From: Candidatus Omnitrophota bacterium
Lineage (GTDB): Bacteria; Omnitrophota; Gorgyraeia; Duberdicusellales; 4484-171
Assembly (NCBI GenBank): GCA_037146775.1
Contig: JBAWWL010000003.1
Coordinates: 66,334 to 130,333 of the forward strand
Length of the DNA stretch: 64,000 bases
Direction of reading: 5' to 3'
Shown: positions 1 through 60,215 of the stretch, piece by piece
Layout: every line of letters starts with the position of its first letter
How positions within the stretch are numbered: the first letter of the stretch is position 1
The notes under the pieces: model-generated
Databases searched by the model: none
The model's input: only the letters and a program-made list of their open reading frames with translations
Told to the model about the DNA's origin: nothing
Position numbers and translations under genes: made by a program

Positions 1-2
1 AC

Positions 3-338
3 GGAAAAGGTGATCAGACCCGTTCTTTTTGCTATGTTGATGATCTCATAAAAGGTATTTTAGAGACGATGAAGGCTACCTATCAACTTCCGCTTAATTT
101 AGGCAATCCTCGTGAGTTTAGAGTAATCGATTTAGCTAAAATAGTTATCAAGATGACCGGCTCATCCTCAAAGATAAAATTTATGGCTTTGCCGCAAGAT
201 GACCCGCGTAAACGTAAGCCCAGTATTGCCAAAGCCAAAAAACTATTACGGTGGCAGCCGGTGATTACCTTAGAAGAGGGATTGAAGAAAACCATACTAT
301 ATTTTAGAAAGAAAATTCAAACAGTCTCGGTAGATTAA
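3..338 (+). CDS. NAD-dependent epimerase/dehydratase, 3' partial (UDP-glucuronate decarboxylase-like C-terminus)
   Basis: Frame 3 from the window edge reads GKGDQTRSFCYVDDLIKGIL, matching the conserved UXS/dTDP-glucose-dehydratase GxQTRxFxYVxD motif. It continues into the listed 89-aa ORF, so the 5' end lies outside the window. Confidence 0.6.
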   Translation, partial: GKGDQTRSFCYVDDLIKGILETMKATYQLPLNLGNPREFRVIDLAKIVIKMTGSSSKIKFMALPQDDPRKRKPSIAKAKKLLRWQPVITLEEGLKKTILYFRKKIQTVSVD

Positions 339-375
339 ATAGTAATAACATTCAGTTTATTTTGTAGGAGGTACA

Positions 376-1329
376 ATGAAGGTTTTAATTACCGGAATTA
401 CTGGTTTTGTGGGTTCGCATTTTGCGGAGTATCTTCTCAAAAAAGGAGATATAAAGATTTATGGACTAGTCAGGTGGCGTTCAGACATTAAAAATATAAG
501 CCACATTAAAGATAAATTGACTCTCTATGAGGCAGATATACGAGATTTTATGAGCGTAAAGAGCACCATTGAAAAAATTATGCCCGATAAAATTTTTCAT
601 CTGGCTGCCCAATCTTTTGTCGGTACCTCTTTCAATGCTCCGCAGGAAACCCTTACTACCAATATTATCGGCGAGCTGAATATTTTTGAAGCGGTAAAGG
701 CTTTAGGTATCAATCCCCCTATCCAGATTTGCGGTTCTTCCGAAGAGTACGGCCTGGTGCATAAAAACGAATTGCCCATAAAAGAAACTAACCCCTTGCG
801 TCCGCTTTCTCCCTATGCAGTAAGTAAGGTTACTCAAGACTTATTAGGTTACCAATACTTTAAGAGTTATGGATTAAACATAATAGTAACCCGCGCTTTT
901 AATCATACCGGAAGACGCCGCGGGGAACCTTTTGTCTCGTCCAATTTTTCTAAACAAATTGCCATGATTGAGAAAGGTAAGCAGGATCCGGTTATTCACG
1001 TAGGAAACTTAGAAGCAATAAGAGATTTTAATGACGTGAGAGATGTTGTAAGGGCTTACTGGTCATCTTTAGAAAAATGTAGGCCCGGAGAGGTTTATAA
1101 TATTTGTAGTGGCAAAGGCTATAGAATTCAGGAAGTTTTAGACATCCTTCTTTCTTATACAAAAGTGAAAGTTAAAATAAAGCAAGATCCGGAGCGCATG
1201 CGGCCGTCAGATGTTCCGGTTTTAATTGGCGATTGCTCAAAATTTAAAGAAGAAACCGGCTGGAGCCCGGAAATACCCTTTGAAAAGACACTCGAAGATT
1301 TATTGAATTATTGGAGAGAAAACGTTTAA
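376..1329 (+). CDS. SDR-family NDP-sugar dehydratase/reductase (GDP-mannose 4,6-dehydratase / Rmd-like)
   Basis: N-terminal Rossmann motif ITGITGFVGSHFAEYL, a YxxxK catalytic dyad (PYAVSK), and a Gmd-like FNHTGRRRGEPFVSSNFSKQIA segment. Confidence 0.65.
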   Translation: MKVLITGITGFVGSHFAEYLLKKGDIKIYGLVRWRSDIKNISHIKDKLTLYEADIRDFMSVKSTIEKIMPDKIFHLAAQSFVGTSFNAPQETLTTNIIGELNIFEAVKALGINPPIQICGSSEEYGLVHKNELPIKETNPLRPLSPYAVSKVTQDLLGYQYFKSYGLNIIVTRAFNHTGRRRGEPFVSSNFSKQIAMIEKGKQDPVIHVGNLEAIRDFNDVRDVVRAYWSSLEKCRPGEVYNICSGKGYRIQEVLDILLSYTKVKVKIKQDPERMRPSDVPVLIGDCSKFKEETGWSPEIPFEKTLEDLLNYWRENV

Positions 1330-1358
1330 ATCATAATTTGCACAAGAAATTAATTTCT

Positions 1359-2330
1359 ATGCCAATACAAAATATAGCTATGGTCGGCCTGGGCGCGTGG
1401 GGTAAAAATATTCTGCGTAATTTATATGAATTAAAAGCTATACGTGTCGCGTGTGACTGTAATCTTGATACCTTGCGCGAGCGCAAAAAAGAATTTCCTG
1501 ACATAGCTTATACTGCCACGTTTGACGATATCCTGAAAGATAACGCGGTTACGGCGGTATGTATTGCCACTCCTGCCTCAACACATTATAAATTAGCAAA
1601 GATGGCTCTTGATGCGCATAAAGACGTATTTGTGGAAAAGCCGTTGGCGTTTAATGTTAAACATGGCAGAGAGCTGATGCGTATCGCCGAGAAAAAAAAG
1701 AAAATTCTCATGGTTGGTCATATCCTGCAGTATCATCCGGCTATTATTAGACTCAAAAGCCTTCTTGAAGAAGGAGCTCTTGGGCAAGTGCAATATATCT
1801 ATTCCAATAGGTTGAATATAGGTAAATTGCGCGTTGAGGAAAATATTCTATGGAGTTTTGCTCCGCACGACATTTCTGTGCTTTTAATGCTGATTGGCTC
1901 AGAGCCTTTAAGGGTAGATTGTTTCGGTGCTTCTTATATCAATAAGGGTATCAGCGATGTTACTATGACTACCCTTGAATTTAAGAACAATATAAAAGCG
2001 CATATTTTTGTAAGCTGGTTACATCCTTTCAAAGAACACAAATTGATTGTAGTCGGTTCAAAGGCTATGGCAGTTTTTGACGATTTAACAAAAGAGAAAT
2101 TATTTATTTATCCTCACAAAATAGAGTGGCACAACGGTAAAATTCCTGTTGCGCATAAAGCCGAGTATTATTGTCTGCCCATAGAAGAGAAAGAGCCATT
2201 GCGAGAAGAAATATTACATTTTATTGAATGCATTGCTGCGCGTAAAGTTCCCAAGACAGACGTAAAAGAAGGCTTAAAAGTTTTAAAAGTATTGGCGGAA
2301 GCGGAGCGAAAGCTGCGCGCTAGAAAATAG
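1359..2330 (+). CDS. Gfo/Idh/MocA family oxidoreductase (WbpB-like NDP-sugar 3-dehydrogenase)
   Basis: Rossmann motif IAMVGLGAWG followed by the EKP motif (VFVEKPLA). The start is chosen at the in-frame ATG at 1359, after the previous stop; the listed ORF begins at 1311 inside the upstream gene. Confidence 0.65.
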   Translation: MPIQNIAMVGLGAWGKNILRNLYELKAIRVACDCNLDTLRERKKEFPDIAYTATFDDILKDNAVTAVCIATPASTHYKLAKMALDAHKDVFVEKPLAFNVKHGRELMRIAEKKKKILMVGHILQYHPAIIRLKSLLEEGALGQVQYIYSNRLNIGKLRVEENILWSFAPHDISVLLMLIGSEPLRVDCFGASYINKGISDVTMTTLEFKNNIKAHIFVSWLHPFKEHKLIVVGSKAMAVFDDLTKEKLFIYPHKIEWHNGKIPVAHKAEYYCLPIEEKEPLREEILHFIECIAARKVPKTDVKEGLKVLKVLAEAERKLRARK

Positions 2331-2339
2331 TAAAATATC

Positions 2340-2921
2340 ATGTCTAAACTAGCAAAAAAATATTTTATTCACACATCTTCCATTATTGACGAAAATGTGG
2401 AAATAGGAGAAGGAACTAGAGTTTGGCATTTTTCGCATGTGTTGTCTGGTTCGAAAATTGGCAAAAATTGTAATATCGGACAAAACGTGGTTATTGGCCC
2501 CAATGTTGTTATGGGCGATAATTGTAAGATACAAAATAATGTGTCGCTTTACGAAGGCGTTATGCTGGATGACGATGTATTTTGCGGGCCATCCTGTGTT
2601 TTCACGAATGTCATTAATCCCCGCAGCGCAGTTTGTAGAAGAAGCGAGATGCGCAAAACTATAGTCAAAAAGGGAGCCACCATCGGTGCCAATGCAACCA
2701 TTGTGTGCGGCCATACCTTAGGAAAACATTCTTTTGTCGGTGCCGCAGCGGTAGTAACAAAAGATGTGTCTGACTATGCTCTTGTGTATGGCAATCCTGC
2801 CCGTCTCAAGGGGTATATGTGTGAGTGCGGTATAAAACTAGAGTTTAAAAAGGCTAAAGCTATTTGTAAAAGTTGTGCTAAAACATATTGTAAAACTAGC
2901 GCTGGCATTCAAAAAATATAG
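2340..2921 (+). CDS. hexapeptide-repeat N-acetyltransferase (WbpD/WlbB-like)
   Basis: Left-handed beta-helix hexapeptide repeats (IGKNCNIGQNVVIGPNVVMGDNCKIQNNV). It sits next to an oxidoreductase and an aminotransferase, as in 2,3-diacetamido-sugar pathways. Confidence 0.6.
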   Translation: MSKLAKKYFIHTSSIIDENVEIGEGTRVWHFSHVLSGSKIGKNCNIGQNVVIGPNVVMGDNCKIQNNVSLYEGVMLDDDVFCGPSCVFTNVINPRSAVCRRSEMRKTIVKKGATIGANATIVCGHTLGKHSFVGAAAVVTKDVSDYALVYGNPARLKGYMCECGIKLEFKKAKAICKSCAKTYCKTSAGIQKI

Positions 2922-4226
2922 ATGGCAAAGAATTTATCTATACCTCTCTTAGATTTAAAACGCGAATATGCTTTCTTAAAGAAAAGTATCGATCGAGAGC
3001 TCAAAAGCTGCTTTGCTCATCAGGCCTGGATTCTGGGAGAAAAAGTAACCCAATTTGAAAATCAAGTCGCCAAGTATTTGGATACAAAACATGCCATTGG
3101 TGTTGCCTCCGGGACAGACGCTCTAATTTTATCTTTACGGGCTTTAGCTATAAAACTTAAAAATAAAGAGTATTTCGACAAAAACGATGAAATTATCACT
3201 ACACCCTTTACTTTTGTCGCTACTGCCGAAGCAATTGTTCGTAGCGGCGCTACGCCTGTGTTTGTAGATATAAACCCCAACACCTTTAATATTGATCCCC
3301 AAGAAATAAAAAAAGCTATCACTAAAAATACCGTAGGTATTATACCGGTGCATCTTTTTGGTTTAGCCTGCCAAATGAATGAAATTTTAAGTATCGCCCG
3401 GGAAAATAATTTATTTATCGTTGAAGACGTCGCCCAAGCTTTTGGAGCCGAATATAGGTCAGAAGTCAGAGGACAGAGGACAGAAGACAGAAAAAAACTG
3501 GGGACTATCGGTAATTGTGGGGCGTTTAGTTTTTTTCCTTCCAAGAACTTAGGTAGTTACGGTGATGCAGGAATGGTTACCACTAACGATCCTAAACTTG
3601 CCGAGTTAATCAAGGTATTGCGGGCTCATGGTCAAACCAAGCAGTACGATGCTGCGTATATCGGTTACAACTCCCGTCTCGATTCTATGCAGGCAGCCAT
3701 ACTCTTGGCTAAGCTAAAATATATCAATAAATTTAACTCTATCCGTATTGCTACTGCGCATAAATATTATCAGGCCTTAAAAGGTATCAAAAGTATCCAA
3801 CTCCCACCGATATTCGATGTCTCTGGCCATCGACTTCCGACCTCTGACCTCTGTCTTCTGTCTTCTGGTCTCCAGCCTCTGACCTCTGACGTCTGTCCTC
3901 TGTCTTCTGGTCTCCAACCTCTGATCTCTGACGTCTGTCGTCTGACTTCTGAATCCTCCCACGTCTACAACCTCTACACCATCAAAGTTTCTAGCCAGGT
4001 CCGCGATAAACTCCTAAGTTTTTTAAACACCAAAGGTATCGGCGCGCGCGTATATTACCCTGTTGCTCTTCACCAAATGAAAGCCTTCAAAAATGCCAAG
4101 ATTATAGGGAGCCTGCAAAATAGCGAAGAAGCTACCAAACAAGTAATTTCTTTACCCGTCCACCCCTTTTTAAAACCGCAAGAAATAAAATTAGTTATTC
4201 AAACAATAACTGAAGCAAGCCAATAA
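2922..4226 (+). CDS. DegT/DnrJ/EryC1/StrS-family PLP aminotransferase (WbpE-like), carrying two in-frame repeat insertions
   Basis: Conserved DegT blocks (ITTPFTFVATAEAI, IVEDVAQAFGA, FSFFPSKNLGSYGDAG, HVYNLYTI). It is about 40-50 aa longer than usual because of heptamer-repeat-encoded inserts at 3456-3492 and 3836-3952. Confidence 0.75.
   Translation: MAKNLSIPLLDLKREYAFLKKSIDRELKSCFAHQAWILGEKVTQFENQVAKYLDTKHAIGVASGTDALILSLRALAIKLKNKEYFDKNDEIITTPFTFVATAEAIVRSGATPVFVDINPNTFNIDPQEIKKAITKNTVGIIPVHLFGLACQMNEILSIARENNLFIVEDVAQAFGAEYRSEVRGQRTEDRKKLGTIGNCGAFSFFPSKNLGSYGDAGMVTTNDPKLAELIKVLRAHGQTKQYDAAYIGYNSRLDSMQAAILLAKLKYINKFNSIRIATAHKYYQALKGIKSIQLPPIFDVSGHRLPTSDLCLLSSGLQPLTSDVCPLSSGLQPLISDVCRLTSESSHVYNLYTIKVSSQVRDKLLSFLNTKGIGARVYYPVALHQMKAFKNAKIIGSLQNSEEATKQVISLPVHPFLKPQEIKLVIQTITEASQ
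3456..3492 (+). repeat. heptanucleotide tandem repeat (GTCAGAG/GACAGAA units), forward orientation, in frame inside the DegT gene
   Basis: Five consecutive 7-nt units encode SEVRGQRTEDRK. This is the same unit family as 52271-52430. Confidence 0.7.
3836..3952 (-). repeat. heptanucleotide tandem repeat array, inverted copy (CTCTGAC/TTCTGTC units), in frame inside the DegT gene
   Basis: About 16 units that are the reverse complement of GTCAGAG/GACAGAA. Read on the - strand they give the RTEDRGQ-type peptide (antisense ORF 3777..3962). Confidence 0.7.
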
Positions 4227-4255
4227 AGCTACACCAAATTTTCTAACAAATAGCG

Positions 4256-4397
4256 ATGAAAGAAGTTGATATTACTATTATTGGTGCGGGAGTGGTAGGT
4301 TTGGCAATTGCCGCAAGACTTGCCAAAGTAAACCGTTCTCTATACGTGATAGAAAGGCATGATTCTTTTGGCCAGGAGACTAGCTCAGGGAATTGAA
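4256..4397 (+). pseudogene. truncated duplicate of the N-terminus of the FAD-dependent oxidoreductase gene at 5977..7122
   Basis: Encodes MKEVDITIIGAGVVGLAIAARLAKVNRSLYVIERHDSFGQETSSGN then a stop. The first ~55 nt are near-identical to 5983-6037, and the sequence diverges after that. Confidence 0.6.
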
Positions 4398-44627: not shown

Positions 44628-45752
44628 ATGAGGTATGTTTTTAAAAAAGTTAGATATAAATTTCTTGTATTTATAATAGATTCTTTAGGCTACGTCATTT
44701 TTTTCTTCCCTCGTTTCTTCAAAAAAAATACCCCATTATCACCCAAGAAAATACTTGTGGTACGCGTGGATCACATAGGTGATTTTGTGTGCACACTACC
44801 TGTTTTTGAGAATCTAAAATTAAACTTTCCTCAGAGCAAAATCAGTGTTTTAATCAACTCTTCCTCAGTATCCTTAGCAAAACTTAGTCCGCATATTGAC
44901 GAAATAATTTCGGTTAACCCATTTTGGATGCAAAGGGGTAACAAACGCCTTTCTTTTAGGGAGATATTTAAAGTAATACGTGAACTGCGTGAACAAAATT
45001 TTGATTTAGGTTTTGATATGCGCGGAGATTTTTTCTCAATTGCGCTTATGTTTTTAGGCAGAGTAAGGTATAGGGTGGGGTATGCGGTTACTGGGGGAGG
45101 GTTCTTATTAGGTAAGAATGTTTTATATACTAAGAATATAAATACGGTCGAGCGTAATTTTAATCTATTAAGAAATATCGGCGTTCCGATAAAAAAATCG
45201 AGCATCGAACTTAAATTTAGCGATGAAGATAAAAATATAGTTATGTGTATGTTGCAAGACCTATCACTTAAAGAGCAAAAATCCGTTATTTTACATCCTT
45301 TTGCCGGTACTAAAGCAAAACAATGGAGTGTAAGTAAATTTCAAGAGTTAATTGATCAGCTGCGAAAAGCAAATTTTAATATTTTTGTTATTGGTACCAA
45401 AACCGATACAGAACATTATGATGGAGTATGTGATGTGCGAGGTAGATTTGCCTTATCGCAACTAGCATTTTTTATAAAACATGTAGGGTTTTTTATCGGG
45501 CTTGATTCCGGCCCAGCAAATATCGCTGCCGTACTTGATGTACCGACAATAGTAATTTGTTCCGGCACGAATATCCCAGAGCGCTGGATATTTATCGGCA
45601 AAAATGTTAAGCTGGTTTATCGTGATACCGATTGTAAGCCTTGTGAGCTTAAGATTTGCCCTAAAAACAAGCATTATTGTATGGAGGATATTGGGGTGGG
45701 GGAGGTCATGGGTGAGGTGGATAGGTTGATAGGTGGGTATGTTGATAAGTGA
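44628..45752 (+). CDS. GT9-family glycosyltransferase (ADP-heptose:LPS heptosyltransferase-like)
   Basis: KILVVRVDHIGDFVCTLPVF N-terminal GT9 signature and the C-terminal GLDSGPANIAA region. Confidence 0.7.
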   Translation: MRYVFKKVRYKFLVFIIDSLGYVIFFFPRFFKKNTPLSPKKILVVRVDHIGDFVCTLPVFENLKLNFPQSKISVLINSSSVSLAKLSPHIDEIISVNPFWMQRGNKRLSFREIFKVIRELREQNFDLGFDMRGDFFSIALMFLGRVRYRVGYAVTGGGFLLGKNVLYTKNINTVERNFNLLRNIGVPIKKSSIELKFSDEDKNIVMCMLQDLSLKEQKSVILHPFAGTKAKQWSVSKFQELIDQLRKANFNIFVIGTKTDTEHYDGVCDVRGRFALSQLAFFIKHVGFFIGLDSGPANIAAVLDVPTIVICSGTNIPERWIFIGKNVKLVYRDTDCKPCELKICPKNKHYCMEDIGVGEVMGEVDRLIGGYVDK

Positions 45753-45786: not shown

Positions 45787-46143
45787 ATGGGCGGGAGTTG
45801 GAAAGATTTGGATGTTTGGCGGGAGAGTCATTCTTTAGTTTTACAATTGTACAAATTGGTGAGTACTTTTCCGGCCACAGAAAGATATGCCTTGGTCGAT
45901 CAAATAAAACGGGCGGCATATTCTATACCAGCAAATATTGTTGAAGGCCACTCAAGAAACAGTAAGAAGGAATTTCAACGTTATCTTTATATCTCTAGAG
46001 GTTCCCTAGAGGAGTTAAGGTATTTCTTGTTGTTGGCGAAAGACTTGCATTATATCGATGATGTAATCCATAAAGAATATGAAGATAAATTATCGCGGGT
46101 AAGTAAAATGTTGAATGGTTTGATAAGGTCTTTAACATACTAA
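45787..46143 (+). CDS. four-helix-bundle protein (family formerly called 23S rRNA intervening-sequence protein, TIGR02436)
   Basis: WRESHSLVLQLYKLVSTFPATERYALVDQIKRAAYSIPANIVEGHSR...ISRGSLEELRYFLLLAKDL is the hallmark sequence of this family. An RBS AAGGAGAG precedes the ATG. Confidence 0.8.
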   Translation: MGGSWKDLDVWRESHSLVLQLYKLVSTFPATERYALVDQIKRAAYSIPANIVEGHSRNSKKEFQRYLYISRGSLEELRYFLLLAKDLHYIDDVIHKEYEDKLSRVSKMLNGLIRSLTY

Positions 46144-46175
46144 CATAATAACCTATTAACATAACAACTAAGCCA

Positions 46176-47249
46176 ATGAAAATATTCTTTGATGCTAGAA
46201 TGATTGCGCATGCCGGAATCGGTAGGTATATTCGGGGAATATTGCCGGAGATTGCCAAAGATAAGTCTATTGAATTGTGCTTATTAGGTAACCGAATCCT
46301 TATTGAAAAATTCTTTGATGCACAAAATAGAGTTATTGATTTTAATTATCCTATCTATTCTATCCAAGAACAAATAGGTTTCAAAAAGCTAAAAAGTACC
46401 ATTGGCGACAATCTTCTTCATGTCCCTCACTACAACATTCCGGTTTTTGCACCGTACAATTTGGTTGTAACCATCCATGATCTAATCCATATTCTCTATC
46501 CACAAGGAGCAAGCAGCTATTTTGCGCGTTTCTATATGAATTTTATGATTAGAAAGGTTTTGAGTATGGCAAAAAAAGTGATATGTGTTTCTGGTCACAC
46601 TAAAGAAGCTATTTGTCATAATTATCATGTAGCCGGCACAAATTTGGAGGTAGTTGGGGAAGGCGTTGATGGTAGTTTTTCAAAGATAACAGACGAGGGC
46701 TTTCTGGACGCCATTAAACAGAAATATCACTTACCGGGTAAATTTATTCTGTATGTCGGCAGCATCCGTAAGCACAAGAATATTACAATGCTTTTAGAAG
46801 TATTTTCAAAAATCAGAAAAGAAATGCCCGAGGTATCTTTAGTTCTTGTTGGTAAACTTTCTCAATCCTTTGATTTGAAGCTCGATGGCGTGCATTATCT
46901 GGGCGAGGTCCCTGACGACAAGGAATTAGCAGCAATATATAATCTTTCTTCTGTATTTTGTAATCTCTCGCTTTTTGAGGGTTTTGGCTTAACTATTCTG
47001 GAAGCACAGGCTTGTGGCGTGCCAATAGTTTGTAGCGATATAGCGGTACATCGGGAGACTGGAGGAAACGGTATTCTGGCGGTTCCTCCAAGTAATGTTG
47101 ACCAGATAGCACAAGCTCTATATAATGTTTTAACTAAACAAACCTTTCAAGACATTCTTATCAAGAATGGGCTTGAGAATGTGCAGCGATTCAGCTGGCA
47201 GAAAGCATCCGAAAGGGTGGTAGAGTTATATAGGTTGGTAGGTGGATAG
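46176..47249 (+). CDS. GT4-family glycosyltransferase
   Basis: EGFGLTILEAQACGVPIVCSDIAVHRETGG. Confidence 0.8.
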   Translation: MKIFFDARMIAHAGIGRYIRGILPEIAKDKSIELCLLGNRILIEKFFDAQNRVIDFNYPIYSIQEQIGFKKLKSTIGDNLLHVPHYNIPVFAPYNLVVTIHDLIHILYPQGASSYFARFYMNFMIRKVLSMAKKVICVSGHTKEAICHNYHVAGTNLEVVGEGVDGSFSKITDEGFLDAIKQKYHLPGKFILYVGSIRKHKNITMLLEVFSKIRKEMPEVSLVLVGKLSQSFDLKLDGVHYLGEVPDDKELAAIYNLSSVFCNLSLFEGFGLTILEAQACGVPIVCSDIAVHRETGGNGILAVPPSNVDQIAQALYNVLTKQTFQDILIKNGLENVQRFSWQKASERVVELYRLVGG

Positions 47250-47347
47250 GTTGGCATGTTAGTAGGTTATGGCATTACCAACGTTAAATTTTTACGTATC
47301 AACATAACAACTTAACAACATATTAATCTAACAATATAACAACCAAA

Positions 47348-50184: not shown

Positions 50185-51519
50185 ATGATTATTAAAAGAT
50201 TAGACTACATCAGCGAGTTTTTCCTTTTTGTGCTCATGGTGGGTATTACCGTTAACAACGCTCCCACGGAAGTGGCATCTTATCTTCTTATTTTTATTTT
50301 TTTACTGAAACATATTATTCGTCGCGACATCAAACTGCCCAGCTCCCCAATAAATATATTTTTATGCATGTATTCTGTCGTAGTGCTGGTTACGCTCATA
50401 CACAGTAGTTATTTTGGTGAAAGTATAAAAGGTTTTTCGCGGGTTCCTAAATATATATTTTTATATCTTGCCCTGGTTGAACTTTTTAAAAATGATCTGA
50501 AGCGATTAAATCGTTTTTTTTGGATAATAATGGTTGTTTCTGCGGTTACTTTTATAAATGGTGTATTCCAGAGTATTTTTGGTTTTGATTTTTTCAGGCA
50601 TAACGCCATAGATGGGCCGACATCGTTATGCCGTATCAGCTCATCATTTGTTCATTCTAACGACTTCGGATCTTACATAATTACAGTATTGCCTTTGACA
50701 TTCTTGATATTTTCTTCGCTTATCAGCAAAAGAAAAAGGTTAGCATTATTACCCGTAAGTCTTTTGGGTTTTTATTGCCTTTTAAGAACATCTTCTCGGG
50801 GGGCCTGGCTCGGTTTTCTTATAGCAATAATCATATATTTTTTTATGTATAAGAAAAAAATCGCTATACTTATACCTATTATTTTCATAATTTTGATTAT
50901 GTTTTTGCCTTACGGATTCGAACGCGTAACAAGTATTTTTAAGACTAACCAAGGGACTGTCTGGGAAAGAACCAAGCTTTGGCAGGGTGCGTGGGGTATG
51001 ATAAAAGAACATCCTGTTTTAGGCCTTGGCGTAAACACCTTTTCTAAAAATTTTCCTCAATATAAACCCGCAGATTATCCGGACTTAAGATATGCGCATA
51101 ATTCTTATCTACAGATGTGGGCAGAAATAGGATTGTTAGGGTTAATTATATTTTTAGCTATGCCTTTGACTATTTTGGCTAAAGCTTTCAAGGGTATAAA
51201 AAATGAAATTCCATATACTTCCCGCGGCAAGCTCGCCTCGCTTGAGCTTCGGCGAAGCGGGCCGCGGGGTATTCAGTTCATTCCTCCGAAGCCGAATTCC
51301 CTGCGACAAACTACAGGGTGTTCGGCGGAGGAGAATAAAATAAAAGCTGGTCCCCAAGGTTTAATCCTTTTGGGAGCTGTGTGTGGTTATGTGGGGTTTT
51401 TAGTGCAGAGTGGTATGGATAACAACTTATTTTCTCTTGTCCTTACTACTCTTTTTTGGGTATTCAGTGCTTACATTGTTTCCTGGAATAGTTATCTTGA
51501 AAATAAAAACCATGCCTAA
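50185..51519 (+). CDS. O-antigen ligase / Wzy_C-family membrane protein (WaaL-like), carrying an in-frame repeat-element insertion
   Basis: Polytopic protein with the Wzy_C periplasmic-loop motif YAHNSYLQMWAEIGLLGLIIF. Codons ~347-385 are encoded by GC-rich element A (51222-51337). Confidence 0.65.
   Translation: MIIKRLDYISEFFLFVLMVGITVNNAPTEVASYLLIFIFLLKHIIRRDIKLPSSPINIFLCMYSVVVLVTLIHSSYFGESIKGFSRVPKYIFLYLALVELFKNDLKRLNRFFWIIMVVSAVTFINGVFQSIFGFDFFRHNAIDGPTSLCRISSSFVHSNDFGSYIITVLPLTFLIFSSLISKRKRLALLPVSLLGFYCLLRTSSRGAWLGFLIAIIIYFFMYKKKIAILIPIIFIILIMFLPYGFERVTSIFKTNQGTVWERTKLWQGAWGMIKEHPVLGLGVNTFSKNFPQYKPADYPDLRYAHNSYLQMWAEIGLLGLIIFLAMPLTILAKAFKGIKNEIPYTSRGKLASLELRRSGPRGIQFIPPKPNSLRQTTGCSAEENKIKAGPQGLILLGAVCGYVGFLVQSGMDNNLFSLVLTTLFWVFSAYIVSWNSYLENKNHA
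51222..51337 (+). repeat. GC-rich palindromic MITE-like element A (module 1 plus module 2), in frame within the ligase gene
   Basis: Module 1 CCCGCGGC-AAGCTCGCCTCGCTTGAGCTTCGGCGAAGCGGGC-CGCGGGG is homologous to 60064-60098. Module 2 TCAGTTCATTCCTCCGAAGCCGAATTCC...GTTCGGCGGAGGAGAAT is homologous to the reverse complement of 56694-56783. Confidence 0.65.
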
Positions 51520-52402
51520 AAATTACTCTTTAGCGGCAGTCATACTTACTTGCAATTCGGAAAAGAAACTAGAGCAATGTTTAGCTTCTCTGTCTGGGTG
51601 GGTAGACGAAATTATATTGGTTGATGGTCAAAGTCATGACCGCACCATTGCGATTGCTGAACGTTTTGGGGCCAAAATATATTCGCACGCATTTTTAGGG
51701 GCTTTTTCGAAAGAAAGGAATTTTGGAATAGAAAAAGCAAATAGCCAATGGGTTTTGCAGTTAGATAGTGACGAAGTGGTAACTCAGGACTTTAAGAACA
51801 CCTGTGATGAGGCCTTGCCAAGCACTTTATGCGTTTCGTTTAAGTTTCTGCGCAAGAACAACTTTTTGGGGCATTTTTTCCAGTATGGCGGCTGGCATCA
51901 TTGGTCGCAGCACTTACTTAAAAAAGGTTATGCTCATTATGAGGGCAGAGTCCATGAGCGCATGGTGGTAGACGGTGAGGTGGGGTTGATTGAGGCGGAT
52001 ATATTGCATTTTCCGTTCGACAGCCTTACAGAATTCATCGAGCGGCAAAATCGTTACACGACTTTACAAGCCCAAGATATCCTGGATGGCGAAAAAGACC
52101 TCACCATGAAAAAAATTAAATATAATATTATCTGGAAACCGCTGAAACTTTTTAAAAAAATGTACCTGAATAAAAAAGGCTATAAAGAAGGAATGTATGG
52201 ATTTGTTTTTTCGGTATTATTTGCCTGGGTACATTTTGTAAAATGGGCGAAGGTGTGGGAAGTGTACAGTAAGACAGAAGTCAGAGGTCAGAAGACAGAA
52301 GTTAGGGACAGAGGTCAGAGAACAGAAGACAGAGGACAGGGGTCAGAGGACAGAGGTCAGAGAACAGAAGACAGAAAACAGAGGGCGGAAGACAGAGGAT
52401 AG
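51512..52402 (+). CDS. GT2-family glycosyltransferase (KdtX/WaaE-like) with a heptamer-repeat-encoded C-terminal tail
   Basis: AAVILTCNSEKKLEQCL...LQLDSDE GT-A motifs. The last ~45 aa (SKTEVRGQKTEVRDRGQRTEDRGQGSEDRGQRTEDRKQRAEDRG) are encoded by the heptamer array. Confidence 0.65.
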   Translation: MPKNYSLAAVILTCNSEKKLEQCLASLSGWVDEIILVDGQSHDRTIAIAERFGAKIYSHAFLGAFSKERNFGIEKANSQWVLQLDSDEVVTQDFKNTCDEALPSTLCVSFKFLRKNNFLGHFFQYGGWHHWSQHLLKKGYAHYEGRVHERMVVDGEVGLIEADILHFPFDSLTEFIERQNRYTTLQAQDILDGEKDLTMKKIKYNIIWKPLKLFKKMYLNKKGYKEGMYGFVFSVLFAWVHFVKWAKVWEVYSKTEVRGQKTEVRDRGQRTEDRGQGSEDRGQRTEDRKQRAEDRG

Positions 52403-52430
52403 AGGGCAGAAGGCAGAGATCTGGCATCTG
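52271..52430 (+). repeat. heptanucleotide tandem repeat array (~23 units of GACAGAG/GTCAGAG/AACAGAA)
   Basis: A 7-nt periodicity visible by eye. It runs through the stop codon (52400-52402) of the GT2 gene and ~28 nt beyond, and is the same family as 3456-3492 and 3836-3952. Confidence 0.75.
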
Positions 52431-52452
52431 TGTCAAATCTTAGTTTTAAACT

Positions 52453-53514
52453 ATGTTTAAGAAAATATTAATTGTACGCATTGGGAATATTGGGGATGTG
52501 TTATTTACTACTCCGCTGATTCGTATTTTAAGAAAGAATCTTCCTCACACGTATATCGACATGCTAACGTCAGCGCAGGCAAGTGTGGTGGTTGAAAAAA
52601 ATCCTTACTTAAACCGGGTTTTTATCTACAAAAAATTCCATCGACTGGAGCGCTGGATACGTCGCAAAATATTATTGCAAAAACTTATTTCTCAAAATTA
52701 TGATTTATGTATTGTGCTTGAGTCTAATCCTGAATATACCAACTTTTCTTACCAGGCAGCCAAACGAGCTTTCCGTGCAGGTATTAGCGCAGAATTAAGC
52801 AACAAATTTCTTAACCGTTCGGTAGTATTTTCTCGAGATCATCATGCTATAGAAAACTATTTACGTATTATTCCTGAATTATTTAAAATAAAGATTACTG
52901 CCGACGATTACCAAATGGATTTTTTTATGGACGAGCCTCCTGAGGCGCTTAAAAATGAACTGGAAGGTTATCGTAAAAACGGTTACGTAGTGCTGCACCC
53001 TTCTTGTAGCTGCGGCCTTCCTTATCGAGGTTGGCCTATCGAGAAGTTTGTTGAGGTGGTTCGGTATCTTACAGAGAAGCAGATAGCGGTTTTTATTACC
53101 GGCATACCAGCTGATGAAGAAACGCAAAATCTTCTAAAGCAGCTATCGGCTGAACCGAACGTACATGCTTTTATCGGTCGCAGCATTAACGAAGTAGGTT
53201 ATTTATTAAAGCATTCAAAAGGGTTACTATGTTTAGATACCGGGATCTTGCATTTAGCCAGGGCCTTAGATGTTCCTTTGGTAAGCCTTTTTGGGCCGTC
53301 AGCGAAACATCATACCGGCCCCATTGGTAATGGCCGATACAAAGTTATCAGTAAAGATTTCGCCTGCAGTCCCTGTCAGTATTTTCCTGAACATCGTAAA
53401 GAAGAAAAGGCTAAGTGTATGGATGGTAACGTGCCAGCTTGTATGATAGAGATTACTCCAGTGGAAGTTTTAGCGGCAATAGATGAAATAATATTGAAAG
53501 GCAATGATAAATAA
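52453..53514 (+). CDS. GT9-family glycosyltransferase (heptosyltransferase-like)
   Basis: ILIVRIGNIGDVLFTTPLIRIL N-terminal GT9 signature and the LCLDTGILHLA C-terminal region. Confidence 0.7.
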   Translation: MFKKILIVRIGNIGDVLFTTPLIRILRKNLPHTYIDMLTSAQASVVVEKNPYLNRVFIYKKFHRLERWIRRKILLQKLISQNYDLCIVLESNPEYTNFSYQAAKRAFRAGISAELSNKFLNRSVVFSRDHHAIENYLRIIPELFKIKITADDYQMDFFMDEPPEALKNELEGYRKNGYVVLHPSCSCGLPYRGWPIEKFVEVVRYLTEKQIAVFITGIPADEETQNLLKQLSAEPNVHAFIGRSINEVGYLLKHSKGLLCLDTGILHLARALDVPLVSLFGPSAKHHTGPIGNGRYKVISKDFACSPCQYFPEHRKEEKAKCMDGNVPACMIEITPVEVLAAIDEIILKGNDK

Positions 53515-54613: not shown

Positions 54614-55399
54614 ATGGCTAGATCTGCGTTGTCGGTGATTGTGTTAGCAAAAAACGAATCCCAAAGGATTAAGGGTTGCCTTGATTCAGTACGGGAGTGG
54701 GTAGATGAAATTATTGTGGTGGATGATGAAAGCAGCGATAATACTCCAGAGATAGCTAAGGCCCTTGGTGCAAACGTGTTTATCAGGAAGATGGAAATCG
54801 AAGGGCAGCATCGTAATTGGGCTTATGCGCAGGCCAAAAACGAGTGGGTGTTAAGTTTAGACGCCGACGAACGGGTGACCGAAGAGCTCAAAGAAGAGCT
54901 AGCGATCTTATTGACCACAAAACCGAAAGAGAATGCTTTTACCATACCGCGGCGTAACTTTATCGGCAATTATTGGATACGTTGGGGAGGCCAATACCCT
55001 TCTGCCCAGATAAAGTTATTTCGAAAAGACAAATTTAAATGGGAAGAAGTAGAGGTTCACCCAAGAGCATTTTTGGAAGGTGTTTGTGGCCACCTGCAAA
55101 AAGATCTCATTCATTATACCTACCGTGACTGGGCTGATTTCTTAAAGAAACTTAACAACCAGACAACGCTAGAAGCAAAGAAATGGTATAAACTTTCTTT
55201 GGAAAACCCCAAGAAGGCCCGCTATAAAATGAATTTTTTTCATGCGAGTTGGCGAACCTTGGATAGGTTTATCCGGACTTTTTTTGCGAAAAAGGGGTAT
55301 CGCGACGGCTTTATCGGATTTATGATCGCCTATTTTGCATCTCTTTATCAGATAGTAAGCTATGCGAAGTATAGAGAACTTAAACAAAATAACAAATAA
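54614..55399 (+). CDS. GT2-family glycosyltransferase (KdtX/WaaE-like)
   Basis: LSVIVLAKNESQRIKGCL...VVDDESSDNT...LSLDADE. It is paralogous to 51512 and the N-terminal half of 41555, and has a strong RBS AAGGAGG. Confidence 0.7.
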   Translation: MARSALSVIVLAKNESQRIKGCLDSVREWVDEIIVVDDESSDNTPEIAKALGANVFIRKMEIEGQHRNWAYAQAKNEWVLSLDADERVTEELKEELAILLTTKPKENAFTIPRRNFIGNYWIRWGGQYPSAQIKLFRKDKFKWEEVEVHPRAFLEGVCGHLQKDLIHYTYRDWADFLKKLNNQTTLEAKKWYKLSLENPKKARYKMNFFHASWRTLDRFIRTFFAKKGYRDGFIGFMIAYFASLYQIVSYAKYRELKQNNK

Positions 55400-56643: not shown

Positions 56644-56693
56644 TCCTAACATTCTTTTCTGTCGATTTTCTGATATAATAAAAAGATACAATT

Positions 56694-56783
56694 TATTCTC
56701 CTCCGCCGAATATCCTGTGGCAAGCTACAGAGAATTCAGCTTCGGAGAAATGAACTGGATATCCTTCAGAGTTCATAGGGGGA
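56694..56783 (-). repeat. GC-rich MITE-like element B (module 2, inverted relative to element A)
   Basis: Its reverse complement, CCAGTTCATTTCTCCGAAGCTGAATTCTCTGTAGCTTGCCACAGGATATTCGGCGGAGGAGAAT, aligns to 51270-51337. Confidence 0.65.
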
Positions 56784-60039: not shown

Positions 60040-60215
60040 TAATTTCGTTTATCGTCTATCGGGTGCTCGCCTCGCTAAAGCTTCAGCGAAGCGGGCGCGA
60101 CTCGTTTCGGTTGCGTTAATCGTCAACCGGCTTTGTTTCTTATGATATTTCTGACTCAACCGTTATACGATAGACGATACGAGCTGCGCCTGCCTCGCCG
60201 GCAAGGCGGGCAACC
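60040..60215. repeat. structured GC-rich repeat region C (module 1 copy nested inside an ATCGTCTATCG / CGATAGACGAT inverted repeat)
   Basis: 60047-60060 pairs with 60168-60183. Module 1 at 60064-60098 is homologous to 51231-51268, and a further hairpin GCCTGCCTCGCC-GGCAAGGCGGGC lies at 60189-60212. Confidence 0.55.

Follow-up and report, generated by a model that had tools for sequence, protein, structure and literature searches.

A heptamer array read as the C-terminal tail of an Omnitrophota glycosyltransferase, a probable solo arm of a widespread stem-forming repeat family

The intervening sequence (IVS) found in the 23S rRNA of Coxiella burnetii, located in helix 45, encodes S23p, and RNase III removes it at a 28-bp stem formed by its terminal inverted repeats (PMC4990558). 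Its 5′ region contains tandem GACAGAT heptamers and one GACAGAA; strains have two or three copies, the first repeat begins at the RNase III site, and the IVS is regarded as a selfish element (PMC4990558). Here we analyse a heptamer array of the same GWCAGAR family, which forms the 3′ end of a family 2 glycosyltransferase (GT2) gene in a 64,000-nucleotide stretch from a Candidatus Omnitrophota bacterium (contig JBAWWL010000003.1, positions 66,334 to 130,333; hereafter the window). We call this array A3, and two further arrays in a DegT gene A1 and A2; loci used for comparison are numbered Lnnn. A3 is probably a degenerate, expanded purine-rich arm with a vestigial partner, and the tail that it adds to the enzyme a tolerated by-product, neither a switch nor a domain.

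The Coxiella IVS stem is the closest sequence relative of A3. It has the same heptamer family in its 5′ stem, with the purine arm upstream of a four-helix-bundle open reading frame (ORF), an arrangement that recurs in loci described below, among them L251 and L039. Unlike the IVS, A3 lies in a lipopolysaccharide (LPS) operon rather than in rRNA, is translated and is far longer; it also lacks a PF05635 ORF in the loop and nearly lacks a partner arm (15 nt). Thus, of the features that make up an IVS-type stem, A3 has the GACAGAN-type 5′ purine-rich arm but neither a complementary arm that would give a stem of at least 20 bp nor a loop ORF or excisable module.

The closest description of a heptamer array that overlaps an ORF end and is missing in close relatives is that of the TAACTGA direct repeats reported by MacGregor in 2015 from Beggiatoaceae, cyanobacteria and Bacteroidetes (PMC4679880). 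These are likewise cross-phylum heptamers, mostly intergenic near gene ends and absent from the orthologous spacers of close relatives, and some reach into the C-terminal ends of ORFs without touching the functional domains (glycosyl hydrolase, MurG) (PMC4679880). The unit is different, however, and has stops in all forward frames, so that it truncates ORFs whereas A3 extends one; the repeats were proposed to act just upstream of start codons, and no association with inverted pairs or IVSs was reported (PMC4679880). As summarized in the same source, the survey by Mrazek et al. (2007) of long simple sequence repeats with units of 5–11 nt in prokaryotes found heptamers to be the commonest long-unit class, with slippage as the presumed origin, and units that are multiples of three to dominate inside genes (PMC4679880). 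A3 consists of head-to-tail 7-nt units over a length greater than chance, as such repeats do, but it is a coding heptamer whose purine strand can be read through in every frame. Between the GT2 gene and the family 9 glycosyltransferase (GT9) gene downstream of it, the junction is arranged as follows, all on the + strand.

51512–52402, +: GT2 glycosyltransferase ORF, 296 aa (PF00535, E=1.8e-15, residues 10–94).
52268–52399, +: repeat-encoded C-terminal tail, 44 codons (SKTEV...AEDRG; by translation).
52273–52418, +: array A3, 21 degenerate GWCAGAR-family heptamers with the purine-rich strand as the sense strand (Tandem Repeats Finder).
52400–52402, +: GT2 stop codon TAG, inside a mutated unit GATAGAG (instead of GACAGAG).
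52420–52434, +: putative vestigial inverted arm, two degenerate units in opposite orientation, TCTGGCATCTGTGTC (by match to cassette pyrimidine-arm units).
52453–53514, +: GT9 (heptosyltransferase-family) gene (PF01075).

Tandem Repeats Finder resolved A3 into 21.0 copies of a period of 7 nt (71% matches, consensus GACAGAG, score 117) and detected a higher-order period of 42 nt at 52306–52419 (2.7 copies, 83% matches). Perfect period-7 runs are short, with maxima of 13 nt (fewer than two units) for A3 and 18 nt for both A1 and A2, unlike the perfect 42-nt periodicity, which extends over 60–70 nt. When the window was searched with the two-unit pattern GWCAGARGWCAGAR, allowing at most one mismatch, 26 matches were found against 0.08 expected from shuffles, all of them within three arrays: 3456–3492 (+), 3839–3952 (reverse orientation) and 52273–52418 (+). 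This pattern search bears out the proposal of an initial annotation of the sequence that the GT2 array and the two DegT arrays share one dispersed unit family. That annotation was also right that the array is real, supplies the GT2 C-terminus and overruns the stop codon, although it counted about 23 units and an overrun of about 28 nt where we find 21 and about 16.

The conserved core of GT2 ends at ...KWAKVWEVY (52267), and the last 44 residues, SKTEVRGQKTEVRDRGQRTEDRGQGSEDRGQRTEDRKQRAEDRG, are read from A3. Because the purine-rich strand of GACAGAG, GTCAGAG and GACAGAA units is free of stops in every frame, the GT2 frame runs on into the array. Three-frame translation of A3 confirms that all frames give permutations of a single 7-residue motif: with 7 and 3 coprime, each frame runs through one set of seven residues in circularly permuted order. 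Loss of one unit would move the GT2 stop to a TAA at 52456–8, overlapping the GT9 ATG, and gain of one unit would move it to a TAG at 52441–3; either change leaves the catalytic core untouched. The end of A3 is 33 nt from the GT9 ATG.

Conservation of the enzyme does not extend to the tail. The best 120 Omnitrophota homologues of GT2 are mostly 254–265 aa long, cover about 84% of the query and stop 5–15 residues past the conserved ...KWAKVWE(V/I)Y, without a tail. At about 90% identity there is a cluster of four sequences, three of which have the identical tail and lie on contigs that are 100% identical to the window over 16–21 kb and represent the same data. The fourth, P0122 (L123/L124), is the closest distinct orthologue: it has no array, its GT2 ends ...VWEIYNAQKVEANAQLPESK, and its GT9 ATG follows 8 nt after the GT2 end. 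Within the window, the GT2 paralogue at 54614 (29% identity, same architecture), a comparison suggested by the initial annotation, likewise lacks the tail and ends 5 residues past the equivalent point. A search of the tail peptide against 5.8 billion proteins retrieved nine ORFs only, all 57–72 residues long, domain-free and spurious-looking, and no alignable tail was found in orthologues or other proteins that would mark a conserved C-terminal module. Because copies of the family in the opposite orientation in DegT encode unrelated peptides, and the tail search finds only tiny ORFs, selection does not appear to act on the peptide. Taken together, these comparisons indicate that the GT2 tail is lineage-specific and recently present.

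Three further GT2 orthologues (L125, L126 and L127), checked at the DNA level, carry arrays that begin directly past the motif ...K(V/Y)WE(I/L) that ends the core.

L125 junction: (ACAGAAG)x8.4, then (TGATCGG)x6.4.
L126 junction: (ACAGACA)x5.
L127 junction: (CACAAGC)x4.6 and an inverted partner immediately before the GT9 ATG.

L127 is syntenic with the window (order Wzy–GT2–GT9–GT9), and its junction is predicted to fold into a strong hairpin (−50 kcal/mol, z −5.6), as is another intercistronic pair from Omnitrophota, L075 (hairpin z −5.2). One junction is therefore seen in three states: empty in L123, with an intact heptamer-armed hairpin in L127 and with a long solo arm in the window. These data support the earlier description of the tail as a nucleotide-level repeat and not a conserved domain, since homologues lack the tail and those with one carry heptamer arrays at the DNA level.

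The source genome also contains an intact cassette with arms of the same family. It starts about 1.1 kb upstream of window position 1, between two epimerase genes, in a locus (L251) that overlaps positions 1–4289 of the window.

L251 8502–8958: intact cassette.
L251 8502–8549: purine array, (GACAGAG)x6.9.
L251 8549–8944: PF05635 gene.
L251 8925–8958: pyrimidine array, (TTCTGAC)x4.9.
L251 8977–9014: (ACTACAT/ACTCACG)x5, after the pyrimidine array.

The cassette is predicted to fold into a closed stem around its ORF (z −3.9) and, unlike A3, has the complementary arm required for an IVS-type stem. It is syntenic with L129 7346–7809, where the encoded intervening-sequence protein (IVP) is 92% identical, against 81% for the neighbouring epimerases and 69–81% for neighbouring genes overall. 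In both loci, the purine arm continues past the stop of the epimerase that precedes it; this protein ends ...DWFRETEVR* in L251 and ...GWFRGQKSEVRG* in L129, and the L129 epimerase ends at a GATAGAR-type stop, as GT2 does. At the other side of the cassette, the pyrimidine arm encodes the IVP C-terminus (...LTSDL*) in L251 and L129. Element arms thus repeatedly supply C-terminal tails. The terminal pyrimidine-arm units of these intact PF05635 cassettes are TCTGACATCTGA, and the two inverted units that follow A3 (TCTGGCATCTG) match the last two pyrimidine-arm units of both cassettes (TCTGACATCTG).

We scanned genomes (one per species) and viral contigs for three consecutive GWCAGAR units. Arrays were found at at least 120 genome loci (L001–L120) and at least 120 viral-contig loci (L131–L250). 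The genome hosts include Verrucomicrobiota, Acidobacteriota, Planctomycetota, Desulfobacterota, Cyanobacteria, Bacteroidota, Nitrospirota and Omnitrophota, with a complete Kiritimatiellota genome and cultured isolates among them. By a crude ORF-based classification of 164 arrays, about half are clear of every ORF of 100 residues or more, about a quarter or more overlap an ORF at its 3′ end, and about a tenth fall within a long ORF, where the purine strand is nearly always the sense strand. Among the matches listed, close inverted pairs have the purine arm first in 18 of 18 cases in genomes (P=7.6e-6) and in 13 of 13 cases in viral contigs; the opposite order was seen in none of these 31 pairs, which come from many phyla as well as from viral contigs.

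PF05635 (23S_rRNA_IVP, a four-helix bundle) genes are found at 6 of the at least 120 genome loci, with scores of 89–133 bits against a cut-off of 33.8, and the gene lies directly between both arms in L035, L039, L068 and the Omnitrophota locus L129. None was found near the arrays in 1.1 Mb of viral contigs. In L039, Rfam places the GWCAGAR-armed PF05635 cassette (1490–1975) inside the 23S rRNA gene of a member of the Rhodospirillales, and it is therefore a genuine intervening sequence. In another rRNA operon, that of L086, a spacer tRNA has the arms on both sides, and the 23S–5S spacer is occupied by them as well (164–340 and 3823–4075). The GWCAGAR family is thus linked to IVS-type cassettes, one of them in the source genome, a connection that the initial annotation did not draw. 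A full-text search of the bacterial literature, in a library of limited size, returned no mention of the repeat strings and no description of PF05635 cassettes with GWCAGAR-type arms outside rRNA, which is weak evidence of novelty.

Separately from these pairs, L036 (Desulfobacterium, about 228–790) has a PF05635 gene between direct copies of about 40 nt, each consisting of a pyrimidine array and then TAAACGTYTCTG..GTGAA, an arrangement that resembles an insertion-site duplication or a tandem cassette. The window itself has a second PF05635 gene (45787–46143), between a GT9 and a GT4 gene, flanked by G/U-rich units of about 8 nt ((AGGTGGAT)n, 45715–45751) and by A/C-rich units ((TAACATAA)n, 46133–46168). 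A gene-less pair of the AGGTGGAT and TAACATAA families occurs at 47231–47268 and 47300–47343; its predicted fold is stronger in the sense orientation (−31.3 kcal/mol, z −2.9) than in the antisense orientation (−24.3 kcal/mol, z −1.7), as expected of an RNA stem that depends on G·U pairs. Another class of selfish insert is present in the same glycan clusters, where inteins interrupt sugar-nucleotide enzymes (L251 1728–4496; L129 3333–5411): a UDP-glucose dehydrogenase (Intein_splicing and LAGLIDADG) and an epimerase/dehydratase (Intein_splicing).

The window has a GC content of about 37% and consists almost wholly of envelope-glycan genes on one strand; the neighbours of GT2 are a Wzy_C O-antigen ligase gene and two GT9 genes. 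The label KdtX-like, given to GT2 by the initial annotation, fits the GT2 catalytic domain (PF00535) and the LPS-core neighbourhood, but the KdtX name itself is tentative, and no NCBIfam equivalog model reached its cut-off with the GT2 sequence (best score 40 bits against cut-offs of 182–350). The Wzy_C ORF (50185–51519) has a 132-nt (44-residue) in-frame insertion at 51203–51340 relative to its 78%-identical orthologue in L123. This insertion has 55% GC in the 37% GC window and two strong predicted hairpins (−64 kcal/mol), and partial copies occur in intergenic DNA at 60065–60096 and 56692–56710; it looks like a REP/RPE-like palindromic element tolerated within an ORF. Rickettsia palindromic elements (RPEs) are selfish palindromes of 100–150 nt that lie in frame in ORFs and are tolerated as extra surface peptide segments. 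They differ from A3 in being palindromic units and not tandem heptamers, and the Wzy insert is their closest analogue in the window.

The DegT arrays lie some 49 kb upstream of A3, in an aminotransferase gene with solved structural homologues.

2922–4226, +: DegT/DnrJ/EryC1 aminotransferase ORF that hosts A1 and A2 (PF01041, E=6.7e-110; Protein Data Bank (PDB) matches, 5.9e-86).
3456–3492, +: array A1, a run of five GWCAGAR units that is in frame with DegT (Tandem Repeats Finder, pattern search).
3839–3952, −: array A2, GWCAGAR family in reverse orientation, in frame in DegT (Tandem Repeats Finder, pattern search).

Compared with PDB homologues, A1 adds 10 residues (SEVRGQRTED) after AEY, in the loop that precedes the FSF...K strand, and A2 adds about 40–45 residues rich in Ser, Leu, Cys and Pro to a loop of variable length before HVYNLY. 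The AlphaFold model of DegT is confident except at these sites, where the pLDDT falls to 69 (A1) and 37–49 (A2). Only the DegT frame is open through A2, the other two frames having 3–4 TGA codons each; in-frame TGN codons are TGA in 0 of 3 cases against 7 of 11 off frame, a difference that is not significant (Fisher's P=0.19). A2 also shows a 42-nt (six-unit) higher-order period (3839–3951, 2.7 copies, 91% matches), and frame preservation matters for A2 and not for A3. We considered whether A1, A2 and A3 are copies of one fixed 114-nt element, and rejected this: aligned without gaps, they are about 64% identical in each 7-nt register, which implies that the three are independent arrangements of one unit family.

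Loop lengths were then compared across 120 DegT homologues (P0134–P0252). The A1 loop (site 1) has 5 residues in 99 of them, 15, the length reached with A1 in the window, in 12, and 22 in one; the A2 loop (site 2) has 7 residues in 44, 12 in 25, 19 in 4 and 26 in one, with the others scattered and the window reaching the maximum of 51. Inserts of at least 16 residues have a self-identity of 0.198 at lag 7, against 0.04–0.095 at other lags. At the DNA level, site 1 consists of five units in all four genomes compared, with the unit TCAGARG in the window and L129, CTCACGA in L128 and CTACAAA in L130. Site 2 is occupied by the reverse-orientation GWCAGAR array in the window, by (AACTTAC)n in L130, by a remnant of (AACTTAC)n in L129 and by (ACTCACG)n in L128, the last matching site 1 of L128 in family and strand. 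On these alignments, both loops are hot spots for heptamer arrays in Omnitrophota orthologues, with the commonest insert lengths 7 residues apart, and the arrays are old and frame-constrained, with a unit family that turns over within lineages. The initial annotation read the repeat as recurrently landing in frame in glycan-synthesis genes, which reads too much into a window where nearly all genes are glycan genes; nor are the DegT arrays fresh landings, as their sites are old hot spots common to Omnitrophota orthologues. In the window genome, A1 and A2 form a purine/pyrimidine pair 346 nt apart with a predicted long-range RNA stem (z −4.5). A conserved A1:A2 stem was rejected, as the orthologous sites carry same-strand or unrelated arrays.

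How might A3 have arisen? In its complete form, the family occurs as inverted pairs in which a purine-rich arm precedes a pyrimidine-rich one. Such a pair is predicted to fold into a long RNA stem, which either encloses an intervening sequence in 23S rRNA, a PF05635 gene or a tRNA of the rRNA spacer or stands as a gene-less hairpin between cistrons. At the GT2–GT9 junction, the purine arm would have expanded to 21 units, partly through 42-nt duplications, and the partner arm would have been reduced to two units. The GT2 frame would then have entered the stop-free array and ended only where a C-to-T change created a TAG. The 44-residue charged tail, probably disordered, would be tolerated as the by-product of a repeat, selfish or neutral, at the DNA or RNA level. 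By analogy with the intact pairs, we infer that A3 descends from a paired stem element, and it may now have little or no function. Several points weigh against this account. The vestigial partner spans only 15 nt and its hairpin has a z score of −0.9, which leaves a short match and analogy as the grounds for deriving A3 from a stem element. With 21 units, A3 is also much longer than typical arms of 4–10 units. It shares the 42-nt superperiod with A2, with no frame constraint past the stop, which could hint at an active process or at selection on length. That phyla share nearly the same unit points to a constraint on its sequence (such as a binding protein or an RNase III context), which a purely neutral account does not explain. 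Finally, the census of arrays in the source genome covers only about 84 kb, and the by-product reading is drawn from sequence comparison.

A broader proposal, which we put forward tentatively and think more likely wrong than right, is that GWCAGAR arrays are the termini of selfish cassettes, excisable at the RNA level and spread across phyla, of which the 23S rRNA IVS is the best known. Such cassettes would have colonised intercistronic junctions, rRNA spacers, phage genomes and the surface loops of enzymes, leaving solo arms (the GT2 tail) and paired arms (DegT). The arms could expose mRNAs to RNase III or to stem-dependent control, and the purine-first polarity could reflect how the element works or spreads.

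Could A3 instead be a functional intercistronic RNA element, at which the operon mRNA is processed, stabilised or bound by a protein, or a spacer that tunes GT9 translation? Related inverted pairs do lie precisely between cistrons with strong predicted folds (z −5.2 in L075 and −5.6 in L127), the Coxiella IVS stems, of the GWCAGAR-type family, are RNase III substrates, and the unit sequence is conserved across phyla. Spacing could matter as well, as one unit more or less would place the GT2 stop 9 nt before the GT9 ATG or overlapping it. GT9 has no Shine–Dalgarno-like motif of its own and A3 contains 8 GAGG motifs; a Shine–Dalgarno role was considered and set aside as weak, only 12 of 48 window genes having such a motif against a background of 10%. 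At A3 itself, however, no inverted partner above seed length turned up within 400 nt; at −13 kcal/mol (z −0.9), the local hairpin is weak and no better than those of shuffles. A terminator and promoter scan around A3 found no terminator-like site, an Rfam search of the whole window gave no match, and the nearest orthologue works with an 8-nt spacer. We therefore regard such a role for A3 as unlikely.

The initial annotation had called tail variation or phase variation a plausible mechanism. In a contingency locus of this kind, slippage of the heptamer would shift the frame, vary the GT2 tail and switch DegT, giving phase-variable surface glycans. Heptanucleotide phase variation has precedents in the 5′ heptads of Escherichia coli K1 neuO, three of which encode seven residues, and in the heptamers of the Haemophilus HMW promoter. 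As in those systems, the 7-nt units here lie in or beside genes for surface glycans or adhesins, in this case within an LPS/O-antigen cluster, and 7 is not a multiple of 3. Their tracts, however, are perfect, lie at the 5′ end or in the promoter and switch expression, whereas A3 is degenerate, 3′-terminal and past the catalytic domain. Perfect arrays do exist in DegT orthologues (L128, (ACTCACG)x3.4–4.3 at 95–100%; L130, (AACTTAC)x3.6 at 100%), Coxiella strains differ by one GACAGAT unit, and a change in unit number that alters a functional part would hold for the DegT arrays. In the window, the perfect period-7 runs of only 13 nt (A3) and 18 nt (A1 and A2) leave little for slippage to act on, and gain or loss of one unit in A3 shifts the stop by only 40–56 nt. 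The effect predicted for such a change, a new tail length and sequence, is correct in that the stop moves, but the kind of peptide is unchanged because all frames permute one motif. In DegT, insert lengths have their peaks at intervals of 7 residues, the pattern to be expected when changes that break the frame are lost. No length variants were seen among three identical assemblies, which derive from one data set and are not independent; two of the compared loci, L121 and L122, were accordingly rejected as an independent test of length heterogeneity, being 100% identical to the window and from the same data. Two scans of JGI metagenomes for the 3′ and 5′ junctions of A3 found no other contig with either junction. 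The degeneracy of A3 and its position past the catalytic core thus argue against a phase-variation switch at GT2, and a contingency locus is an improbable explanation.

The proposal that the charged, 7-residue periodic tail is a selected protein feature, acting as a disordered linker or interaction module of GT2, is largely refuted, and we give it very little credence. Disorder itself is plausible: 55% of the tail is charged (13 positive and 11 negative residues of 44), its mean normalised hydropathy is 0.224, and its AlphaFold pLDDT is 53–57 in a model with a mean of 91.8 and values above 90 up to about residue 260. The tail is modelled as a helix and follows a hydrophobic C-terminal helix. 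A conserved module, by contrast, does not fit its absence from about 120 homologues, one of them about 90% identical, nor the lack of any protein family that shares it; the reverse-orientation copy in DegT encodes quite a different peptide, and the array continues beyond the stop.

An assembly or sequencing artefact is barely credible: every assembly with A3 stems from one data set, the Logan and NCBI assemblies (0 mismatches over 16–21 kb) included, and perfect arrays of the family do break contigs (L072, L074 and L110), yet A3 is degenerate enough for unique assembly, is embedded in a 180-kb contig on which two assemblers agree, and belongs to a family also present in a complete genome, in isolates and at orthologous sites.

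The observation made in the initial annotation holds up, but the mechanism proposed with it is mostly wrong: the GT2 tail is most likely the by-product of a repeat of an already known kind. For annotation, this means that when proteins of uncultured bacteria have 7-residue-periodic, low-complexity C-terminal tails or loop inserts, these can be translated arms of repeats rather than domains; such arms are unsuited to defining families and show up in structure models as loops of low confidence. For genome evolution, the GT2–GT9 junction displays empty, hairpin and protein-read solo-arm states, and DegT holds arrays at two fixed loops. More worth following than the GT2 tail itself are the IVS-type arms between ordinary genes, the purine-first rule and the fixed-loop arrays. 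As the same arms, with four-helix-bundle ORFs, lie between ordinary genes in several phyla, the mobility and RNase III processing of rRNA intervening sequences become testable outside rRNA.

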